Of a stretch of 64,000 bases of DNA, positions 35,927 through 36,484 are shown piece after piece. This stretch comes from a virus: IMG/VR virus record IMGVR_UViG_3300045988_119030, positions 85,411 through 149,410 of that record; one strand, given 5' to 3'. The notes below the pieces were generated by a model, which had not been told where the DNA came from, made no database searches, and saw nothing but the letters and a program-made list of their open reading frames with translations. The translations under genes were made by a program, and so were the position numbers. Position 1 is the stretch's first letter. Each line of letters begins with the position of its first letter.

Positions 35927-36484
35927 TGGTGCGGTTGGAGGGACTTGAACCCTCGGCCAATAGCTTTTTCAATCAATTGATGATAAAAACTTTTCTAAAG
36001 TATAATTTTCAGCGAAATTAATATTTTTTACTTGCCCATTTTTTGTTGGAGCAATTCGCAAACGAAATTCTCTAGCTCCAACTTTCTCGATAGGAACAAT
36101 ATAGCATTGATTATTAAAATATGTTGCAAAATAATCAACTTCTTCTTTTGTGTAAGAATGCATTACTGTTCTTTGAGTATTTGTATGTGTTGAACAAGTT
36201 TTAAAAGAAATATAACCACTTTGAAGATTTTCTAAATTACAAGTTTTAACCTGAATACGGAATAATTTATGATTAATATCAACGATAAAATCATAACGAG
36301 AATCTGATACTAAAGGCTTACAAACTTGAAGTCCTTTACTTAAAAAGGCTTGAGCTACTTGTAATTCAGTAATCTCTCCTTTAAAATGAGAATTTAATTC
36401 CACAAAATCACCTCCTCATTCTAATTTGTTTTTATCTTCTTTTTGTCTGAAAAGGCTACTGCTCTACCACTGAGCTACAACCGC
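35927..36484 (-). tRNA. tRNA-Lys(UUU)-like gene split in the anticodon loop by a ~483-nt insertion carrying an ORF
   Basis: 5' part 36455-36484 (GCGGUUG-UA-GCUCAGUGGUAGAGC-A-GUAGC) and 3' part 35927-35964 (GCUAU-UGGCC-GAGGGUUCAAGUCCCUC-CAACCGC-A-CCA); 7-bp acceptor and 5-bp anticodon stems complementary across the insertion; spliced loop CUUUUAA would give Lys. Confidence 0.6.
35969..36403 (-). CDS. ORF inside the tRNA-Lys insertion, possible PD-(D/E)XK-type homing endonuclease
   Basis: GTG start with SD GAGGAGGTGA; 144 aa; YDFIVDINHKLFRIQVKT is weakly PD-(D/E)XK-like; fills almost the whole insertion between the tRNA halves. Confidence 0.4.
   Translation of the reverse strand: MELNSHFKGEITELQVAQAFLSKGLQVCKPLVSDSRYDFIVDINHKLFRIQVKTCNLENLQSGYISFKTCSTHTNTQRTVMHSYTKEEVDYFATYFNNQCYIVPIEKVGAREFRLRIAPTKNGQVKNINFAENYTLEKFLSSID

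Follow-up and report, generated by a model that had tools for sequence, protein, structure and literature searches.

Splicing of transfer RNA (tRNA) introns by proteins is considered a hallmark of archaea and eukaryotes. Archaeal introns of this kind, some of which carry LAGLIDADG genes, adopt a bulge-helix-bulge, in which two bulges of 3 nucleotides (nt) hold the splice sites with a helix of 4 base pairs (bp) between them, and the tRNA introns of eukaryotes form an anticodon-intron helix. EndA/Sen-type enzymes are not known from bacteria or their phages. Phage tRNA regions harbor free-standing homing-endonuclease genes, such as that of T4 SegB and those of the T5 tRNA-region endonucleases, and in Aeromonas phage Aeh1 the endonuclease insertion mobE splits the ribonucleotide reductase gene without an intron. 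The tRNA introns described from bacteria and phages are all self-splicing ribozymes, mostly of group I, and the latest survey of bacterial tRNA introns lists group I or, rarely, group II (PMC13011429). The tRNA-fMet intron of Synechocystis PCC 6803, which encodes the homing endonuclease I-Ssp6803I, has 655 nt with a self-splicing group I core of ~200 nt (PMC1995217). This cyanobacterial group I intron is located at position 33/34 of the tRNA (PMC13011429), and I-Ssp6803I is a tetramer that cuts a pseudo-palindromic target of 23 bp (PMC3384342). Here we analyzed a 483-nt insert, filled by an endonuclease gene of the same family, that interrupts a tRNA-Lys(UUU) gene in a 64,000-nt stretch of viral DNA (IMG/VR record IMGVR_UViG_3300045988_119030, positions 85,411 to 149,410; referred to as the window).

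A split tRNA-Lys(UUU) gene in a phage tRNA array

The window is an AT-rich piece (~34% GC) of a large phage genome with genes nearly all on the minus strand, and default ARAGORN places an array of 26 tRNA genes at 35.4-60.2 kilobases (kb). The split tRNA-Lys was missed both by default ARAGORN and by the Rfam tRNA model, and no second tRNA-Lys was found within the 64 kb. It occupies positions 36484-35927 of the minus strand, on which all further window features with coordinates also lie, and is interrupted between nt 36 and 37. The 5' exon (36450..36484, GCGGTTGTAGCTCAGTGGTAGAGCAGTAGCCTTTT) holds the 5' strand of the acceptor stem, the D arm, the 5' strand of the anticodon stem and loop nt 32-36, with the anticodon U34-U36 at 36452-36450. 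The 3' exon (35927..35966, AAGCTATTGGCCGAGGGTTCAAGTCCCTCCAACCGCACCA) supplies A37, A38, the 3' strand of the anticodon stem, the variable loop, the T arm, the 3' strand of the acceptor stem, the discriminator A and an encoded CCA. Between them, the insert (35967..36449) starts with CAGAC and ends with GATTGAAA; its terminus reads ...GAUUGAAA, so that the last nucleotide is an A.

An uninterrupted tRNA-Lys(UUU) (GCCTTTTAAGCTATT) was found in five IMG/VR phage contigs of 65-196 kb (L003-L007). Their tRNA-Lys is 100% identical to the joined exons of the window, the flanks are 95-98% identical, and the neighborhood is the same, with tRNA-Gly upstream and tRNA-Cys downstream. The two halves, which an earlier note had read from the sequence alone as a split tRNA-Lys(UUU), thus make up a complete tRNA that matches its intronless alleles in both exons. 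The length of 483 nt given there was recovered exactly from the sequence, from the intronless alleles and by ARAGORN in intron mode, which detected the split gene and set the boundary such that the insert ends on G, yielding the meaningless anticodon AAA. Comparison with the intronless alleles leaves one boundary. It cannot slide, because the first base of the insert (C) differs from the first base of the 3' exon (A) and the last base of the insert (A) differs from the last base of the 5' exon (T). The insertion point U36|A37 is therefore unambiguous. One of the intronless contigs (L007) shows a separate rearrangement: the first 14 nt of tRNA-Cys (GGCAAGGTACTCAA) are duplicated before an inserted open reading frame (ORF), ~650 nt downstream of tRNA-Lys (1202-1276), and the complete tRNA-Cys (2363-2439) follows ~500 nt beyond its duplicated start, which looks like a further nuclease-type insertion beside a tRNA.

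The insert consists of a 46-nt leader (36404..36449), which takes part in the precursor fold and the family covariation described below, an ORF of 144 amino acids with a GTG start and a TGA stop (35969..36403), and 2 nt after the TGA. A Shine-Dalgarno sequence, GAGGAGG (36417-36411), lies 5 nt upstream of the GTG. The description of the insert as almost entirely ORF was borne out, also for all relatives, while the leader length of 45 nt and the distance of 4 nt from stop to 3' exon had to be corrected to 46 and 2 nt. The protein matches Pfam PF11645 (PDDEXK_5) with 114.1 bits (cut-off 26.1, E=6.6e-33), residues 4-136 aligning with profile positions 2-137 of 138, and further matches phrog_5018 and the I-Ssp6803I structure (PDB 2OST, E=6e-6). 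The PD-(D/E)XK motif had been called weak and reminiscent of I-Ssp6803I; the family was right, the weakness was not. Residues E13, D38, Q51 and K53 do not vary among ten aligned relatives (alignment A1) and are presumably the counterparts of active-site residues of I-Ssp6803I. Judged by these matches, the ORF encodes a full-length PD-(D/E)XK homing endonuclease of the I-Ssp6803I family.

A family of inserts and a helix that joins both junctions

Viral contigs and GTDB genomes were searched with the protein or its alignment, which yielded 101 loci (L008-L019 and L020-L108), some contigs being repeated. At 68 of the 89 loci L020-L108 the nuclease gene lies within a split tRNA that ARAGORN detects in intron mode; artificial splicing added eight such loci and inspection at least one (L054), giving a total of ~77. 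The interrupted tRNAs are all located in phage tRNA arrays, and the nine matches to 'genomes' are contigs of metagenome-assembled genomes of rumen or gut Clostridia. After removal of duplicates 61 distinct interrupted tRNAs remained, 52 of which were aligned (alignment A2). At least 52 distinct inserts in tRNAs with 13 anticodons are thus available, and every one is at 36|37. Splicing in silico at shifted offsets followed by ARAGORN was uninformative, many registers being tolerated, and was replaced by registration on the anticodon stem and by comparison with intronless relatives, which set the site at 36|37 in four tRNAs (Lys UUU, Thr UGU, Asn GUU and Gly UCC). The ORF fills each insert, leaving 13-46 nt before and 2-22 nt after it, and where inserts reach 657-848 nt the extra length is taken up by longer proteins of 205-267 amino acids. 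Six of the ORFs are open only with TAG read as sense, which fits recoded phages.

The family includes a cultured phage. In Enterococcus phage EFP01 (KY549443, Schiekvirus) tRNA-Asn(GUU) is interrupted by 463 nt, for which the record gives a hypothetical protein only. The same tRNA-Asn is uninterrupted at this place in 29 other Schiekvirus genomes, among them iF6, EFDG1 and EfV12-phi1, with flanks that are 97-98% identical in most. Default ARAGORN, Rfam and the GenBank annotation of EFP01 all overlook such tRNAs; phage tRNA repertoires, including those used in arguments on codon adaptation or recoding, are therefore under-counted. The nuclease sequences group by the tRNA that they interrupt, with separate Pro, Glu, Gly, Lys, Thr and Asn clades. 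Such clustering is the behavior of target-specific homing endonucleases, and together with the presence/absence polymorphism of the insert at identical sites it lends indirect support to a homing element. The suggestion that tRNA-Lys might be deliberately disrupted is, on the same two grounds, better read as selfish invasion.

The two ends of the insert are predicted to pair with each other, and its last three nucleotides with the anticodon. In the window, the 3' end of the insert (35967..35976; negative numbers count from its last nucleotide) presents AAA (35969-35967) to the anticodon U36-U34. Beyond it, G-4, U-5 and U-6 (35970-35972) pair with insert nt 1-3, A-7 faces A4, and G-8, U-9 and U-10 pair with insert nt 5-7, the 5' strand of this proximal helix lying at 36449-36447 and 36445-36443. 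The TGA stop (35971-35969) is part of the 3' strand, and translation and helix formation are therefore mutually exclusive. Past an internal loop the leader pairs with the last ORF codons in a distal helix, whose 5' strand GAUAAAAAC (36436-36428) meets GUUUUUAUC (35982..35990) inside the end of the ORF. The sequence of this helix is wholly different among relatives, being GAAAGTATTTTC/GAAAATACTTTC in L020 (written as RNA, GAAAGUAUUUUC/GAAAAUACUUUC) and TGGCAATTAC/GTAATTGCCA in L028 (written as RNA, UGGCAAUUAC/GUAAUUGCCA). The minimum free energy fold of the 558-nt precursor (-140.7 kcal/mol, z = -6.6) retains the acceptor stem, D arm and T arm and adds a rod of ~25-30 bp with the ORF in its distal loop, the Shine-Dalgarno sequence being sequestered in a local hairpin.

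With the inserts registered by the anticodon stem alone, alignment A2 (n=52) gave one helix for the whole family, 33:37, 34:-1, 35:-2, 36:-3 and +1:-4 through +6:-9. The pairs 34:-1, 35:-2, 36:-3 and +1:-4 are formed in 51, 52, 50 and 52 of the 52 inserts, with 4-6 pair types each. The last three nucleotides vary with the anticodon (UUU:aaa, UGU:aca, GUU:agc, UCC:ggu, ACG:cgu, GCA:ugc). They are complementary to it in the 36|37 register only, with 2.92 of 3 pairs compared with 1.0-1.8 in five other registers. Over the helix as a whole 82% of the cells are paired; sliding the partner by 1-3 columns lowers this to 33-46%, and none of 500 shuffles attained the pairing or the covariation score of the actual alignment. 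Junction-bridging pairs are formed in 96-100% of the inserts, compared with 69-92% further along and 48% at +7:-10. Among the helix pairs across the family, G·U occurs 86 times and A·C five times; the complementarity therefore exists only on the transcribed sense strand, that is, in RNA and not in duplex DNA.

It follows from this register that the two junctions, 36|+1 and -1|37, lie 3 bp apart on opposite strands of one helix. Each is found immediately 3' of a central element of 3 bp, in which the anticodon pairs with the end of the insert; the arrangement is two-fold symmetric with a 3-nt 3' stagger. Pairing with the anticodon region and lack of a ribozyme, the features expected of a protein-spliced intron, are both present, as the last three nucleotides pair with the anticodon in 50-52 of 52 inserts and the ORF fills the insert. 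A helix that covaries with the anticodon favors processing at the RNA level. Taken together, the comparative data show or strongly support a mobile element with an I-Ssp6803I-family nuclease gene that occupies one fixed position of the anticodon loop and carries a selected helix tying both junctions. Among more specific motifs, a K-turn at the conserved A·A/C-G step of the Lys class was rejected, since by inspection the sequence does not fit the consensus.

Proposed processing of the precursor and competing explanations

These features can be assembled into a mechanism. The element, in which the gene for an I-Ssp6803I-type endonuclease is preceded by a short leader and followed by a few nucleotides, would have homed into tRNA-Lys(UUU) at 36|37: the endonuclease would cut the intronless tRNA gene of a co-infecting phage, and repair would copy the element in, as family membership and the population pattern indicate. 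At the RNA level the element would be transcribed within the pre-tRNA. A sigma-70-type promoter (TTGACA-17-TATAAT, 12/12 consensus, a pattern match only) lies upstream of tRNA-Gly at 37026..37054 and is the likely source of a transcript through the split gene; as no terminator-like site was found between this promoter and tRNA-Lys, the endonuclease ORF is most likely transcribed within the pre-tRNA. The cloverleaf would form with its anticodon stem prolonged into the long rod, which comprises U33:A37, the anticodon with the last three nucleotides, insert nt 1-6 with -4 to -9 and the distal helix that loops out the ORF. Covariation supports this structure, and from there on we infer the processing itself: the junction helix would serve as the recognition structure for protein-mediated excision, after which nt 36 would be ligated to nt 37.

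Two candidates for the cutting enzyme may be considered. One is a nuclease of the host or phage that cleaves double-stranded RNA. RNase III, whose cuts normally give 2-nt overhangs, would fit poorly, as the exact exon ends demand a 3-nt stagger in the conserved register and 2 nt could be obtained only through slippage in U/A runs (Lys class). The other is the intron's own nuclease, acting as a dimer or tetramer. With the 3-nt 3' overhangs that I-Ssp6803I leaves on DNA and a dyad through nt 35, the enzyme would cut the anticodon arm at 36|37 (top strand) and 33|34 (bottom strand). Elements bearing PF11645 are found at just these two positions, 36|37 here and 33/34 in cyanobacterial tRNA-fMet (PMC13011429), and such cuts would also match the stagger of the RNA junctions. 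A nuclease domain termed DREN, for 'DNA and RNA effector nuclease', is similar in structure to the tetramer of I-Ssp6803I (PMC12205087). A candidate for joining nt 36 with nt 37 is the phage RNA ligase encoded at 23836..25221 (Pfam PF09414, 27.6 bits); it is homologous to annotated RNA ligase genes in 379 phage records, with a best identity of 48%, and RNA ligase and phosphoesterases are encoded ~10 kb from the split tRNA-Lys; an RlaP-like nucleotidyltransferase is likewise encoded near the array. A mobile, ribozyme-less tRNA intron that is removed by proteins is the reading we favor, at about even odds. The fuller proposal, which we put forward tentatively and with a confidence somewhat short of even, is that phages of Firmicutes carry an unrecognized class of such introns, excised by a protein with cuts 3 bp apart on the anticodon-intron helix and resealed by a ligase, the enzyme perhaps being the intron's own PD-(D/E)XK endonuclease working with the same 3-nt stagger as on DNA.

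Several observations weigh against removal by proteins, and most of them would be expected if the endonuclease gene had simply homed into a dispensable phage tRNA and destroyed it, so that no mature tRNA-Lys would arise from the gene. In that case the helix would zip the transcript into a tRNA-shaped RNA with protected ends and may regulate or stabilize the endonuclease messenger RNA. Phage tRNAs are accessory genes, and since they are dispensable the insertion need not be spliced. One lineage (L027:1125-1665, and L026 alike) holds an intact endonuclease gene, 60% identical to that of the window, within a decayed tRNA-Lys with a 2-nt deletion in the T-loop (GGGTTAATCCC), one mismatch each in the acceptor and anticodon stems and no CCA. 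At another locus (L055:1160-1655) the element lies in a spacer between tRNA-Leu and tRNA-Ala, without a tRNA body, and is flanked solely by a bare anticodon arm with a 5-bp stem (TCTGC-TTTGT | insert | AA-GCAGA), the junction and distal helices being retained. Two otherwise different tRNA-Lys genes (L028 and L035) are identical in the exon stretches beside the insert, which suggests young insertions; recent homing with co-conversion would yield such identity, and intact exons are therefore no proof of purifying selection. Homologues that stand free beside tRNAs and interrupt none are common and known from Pectobacterium phage My1 (L001:1501-1902, overlapping tRNA-Ile by 7 nt), Halorubrum virus HSTV-4 (L111:565-1026, 2 nt after tRNA-Asn) and Synechococcus phage Sf-FR1 (L112:589-1023, between tRNA-Arg and tRNA-Val), and in L081 and L086 they lie directly beside tRNA genes. 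The stop codon within the helix, which sets translation against helix formation, likewise suits an unspliced insertion. As for the enzymes, none is known in bacteria that makes 3-nt-staggered cuts in RNA helices. Mimicry of the missing DNA half-site by the insert strand of the helix was considered and dropped as not general, since it was seen in one Thr(UGU) subclass only (L042, L045, L101) and with a 1-nt offset. No Enterococcus phage is among the matches to the window's ligase, which therefore cannot be the general partner, and the first 50 kb of iF6 contain no annotated RNA ligase.

An unspliced insertion is the main rival reading, which we place well short of even in view of the junction helix. 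A helix that stabilizes a messenger RNA need not begin exactly at the junction, nor would it need exactly three nucleotides against the anticodon in 50-52 of 52 inserts, or a re-adaptation of these three whenever a nuclease lineage changes its tRNA target. The junction-bridging pairs are moreover the most conserved part of the rod, and about 77 of the 89 copies retrieved with the protein retain a complete cloverleaf, decay being confined to one or two lineages.

A self-splicing RNA, either a group I core overlapping the ORF or an unrecognized small ribozyme made of the junction helix and the tRNA body, would make the intron self-sufficient in any host, from which a mobile element would benefit, and the sole characterized member of the nuclease family does sit in a self-splicing group I tRNA intron (PMC1995217, PMC13011429). 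We consider it improbable here. Two near-universal rules of group I introns fail: the window insert ends on A and the last nucleotide is G in 12 of 52 relatives, and the U that ends the 5' exon, present in the window, is found at N36 in only 33 of 52. The end of the 5' exon pairs with the 3' end of the insert and not with a 5'-proximal guide sequence. The 46 + 2 nt outside the ORF leave no space for a ~200-nt core (P3-P9), and the 13-46 and 2-22 nt outside the ORFs of all members, the inserts of 657-848 nt included, give no more. Along the ORF, the identity of synonymous codons at conserved residues stays level (0.46-0.69) and shows no conserved block, so that no conserved RNA core is hidden in it. 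A search with the Rfam models, proposed in the earlier note as a check for group I and II, gave no group I, group II or small-ribozyme match over the insert, either at the gathering threshold or at E ≤ 10; this is weak evidence, as the probable group I introns of L009 and L014 went undetected in the same search, and a 2026 survey reports that some tRNA introns escape RF00028 (PMC13011429). The exclusion of a group I intron consequently rests on the terminal nucleotides, the missing room for a core and the conservation at synonymous sites, not on Rfam, and here the earlier note's view that this is no classical group I intron is upheld. The inserts in the tRNA-Leu(UAA) genes of L009 (1673-2472) and L014 (1390-1806) lie at 34/35, end in G, have the motifs AATTCGG(C/T)GAA and ATGGTAACAT in common and probably represent group I introns of the classical IC3 type; one of them contains an HNH ORF.

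Other intron classes fit no better. The 483 nt of the insert compare with at least ~600 nt for the six-domain RNA of a group II intron, its ORF is of the PD-(D/E)XK type instead of the usual reverse transcriptase, and Rfam gave no match. A bulge-helix-bulge was not found: every register lacks both the bulges and the central helix of 4 bp, and the junctions lie in a continuous helix. Finally, the insert ends and the anticodon stem form a long imperfect inverted repeat, which might act as hairpin or cruciform DNA in a transposon-like excision or insertion by a resolvase-like nuclease; I-Ssp6803I is structurally close to the archaeal Holliday-junction resolvase Hjc (PMC3384342). This we regard as very improbable, because an excess of G·U over A·C pairs of 86 to 5 would be intolerable for a structure used on both DNA strands.

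Neighboring features and comparison with known systems

Further inserts without an ORF occur in neighboring tRNAs. In the window a tRNA-Glu(UUC)-like gene (51261-51459) contains 123 nt, also between nt 36 and 37. The first six nucleotides of this insert (UCAAAA) pair with UUUUGA at -12 to -7, so that 6 nt, GCCCUG, remain as a tail; the insert breaks the anticodon-pairing rule, its size is too small for a group I intron, and Rfam gave no match at E ≤ 5. A 72-nt insert in L066 (857-1005) has a similar layout of a 6-bp helix and 6-nt tail. Short inserts of this kind (31-123 nt) were considered as endonuclease-less derivatives of the element; their ends break the anticodon-pairing rule, and they must therefore be something else. 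In L036 (101-236) a tRNA-Leu(UAA) is interrupted between nt 32 and 33 by 49 nt whose ends pair (GCUAG/CUAGC) and which finish with GCACCA, resembling a tRNA 3' end.

Around the tRNA array of the window, a RAGATH-33 RNA (37561-37689; 123.3 bits, just above the gathering score) starts 14 nt past the 3' end of tRNA-Leu(UAA). ARAGORN reports a tRNA with a two-base 'anticodon' (tt) at 60165-60235, immediately after tRNA-Trp, and a tRNA with the anticodon CUA, an amber suppressor, at 50909-50998. With TAG read as sense, ORFs cover 50 kb of the minus strand instead of 42 kb, and some of them (among others 48237-49727 and 13485-14855) have 5-8 in-frame TAGs, which suggests partial TAG recoding in this phage. 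Directly downstream of the array, a protein of 832 amino acids with Major Vault Protein shoulder and vault repeats (30743-33241) adjoins a DUF2828+DUF7788 protein of 522 amino acids (33721-35289); a DUF2828 protein also lies beside the tRNA array of Enterococcus phage iF6. A gene cluster at 14846-28541 looks like one for RNA repair or RNA conflict and includes, besides the RNA ligase (23836-25221), metallophosphoesterases (20532-21251 and 26759-27541), an RlaP-like nucleotidyltransferase (27735-28541, below cut-off), an SPFH/flotillin protein (17022-18407) and a PIN+PhoH protein (14846-16108). Among the relatives, a sub-threshold match to a hepatitis delta virus-like ribozyme (38.4 bits) immediately follows the split tRNA of L041 (1676-1743), and sub-threshold matches to YrlA, a Y RNA-like RNA, lie inside the tRNA arrays of L041 (238-354) and L009 (5363-5478).

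In full-text literature searches, ribozyme-less endonuclease inserts in bacterial or phage tRNAs were not found described, which suggests that the element may represent a tRNA intron type new to bacteria and phages. It would be a mobile tRNA intron with a homing endonuclease in which an anticodon-pairing helix stands in place of a ribozyme, and a new class if splicing is confirmed. Protein-dependent removal, if true, would be the first such tRNA splicing pathway in the bacterial world and would bear on the question of how the tRNA introns of archaea and eukaryotes arose from ancestors with ribozymes. If the inserts are unspliced, homing endonucleases can spread at the cost of tRNA genes and at the same time form messenger RNAs shaped like tRNAs.

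Compared with free-standing genes such as those of SegB, the T5 endonucleases, My1, HSTV-4 and Sf-FR1, the insert has in common that a nuclease is tied to phage tRNA arrays and would gain an inheritance advantage in mixed infections, and the genes of My1, HSTV-4 and Sf-FR1 belong to the same protein family (PF11645). Those genes lie between tRNAs and interrupt nothing, whereas the insert is inside the anticodon loop with a junction helix that covaries with the anticodon. Like mobE of Aeh1, the insert may be a homing-endonuclease gene without a splicing element inside a gene that, in the mobE case, remains functional; there function is restored when the two protein halves assemble, while the halves of a tRNA severed in its anticodon loop would have to be ligated as RNA. 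With the Synechocystis tRNA-fMet intron the insert shares the nuclease family, a target in the tRNA anticodon loop and mobility by homing, and a tetramer with a pseudo-palindromic 23-bp target (PMC3384342) fits the anticodon arm. It differs from that intron in having 483 nt, of which 48 nt are outside the ORF, in its position at 36/37, in lacking a terminal G and in a 3' end that pairs with the anticodon. The introns of archaea and eukaryotes resemble it in the absence of a ribozyme, in a looped-out ORF, in pairing between intron and anticodon region and in two cut sites that adjoin a short central helix on its 3' sides and are related by two-fold symmetry, and the mechanism implied would likewise be a protein endonuclease and a ligase. 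Unlike these introns, the phage element has three continuous base pairs in an uninterrupted helix, and it is located at 36/37 and not at 37/38.

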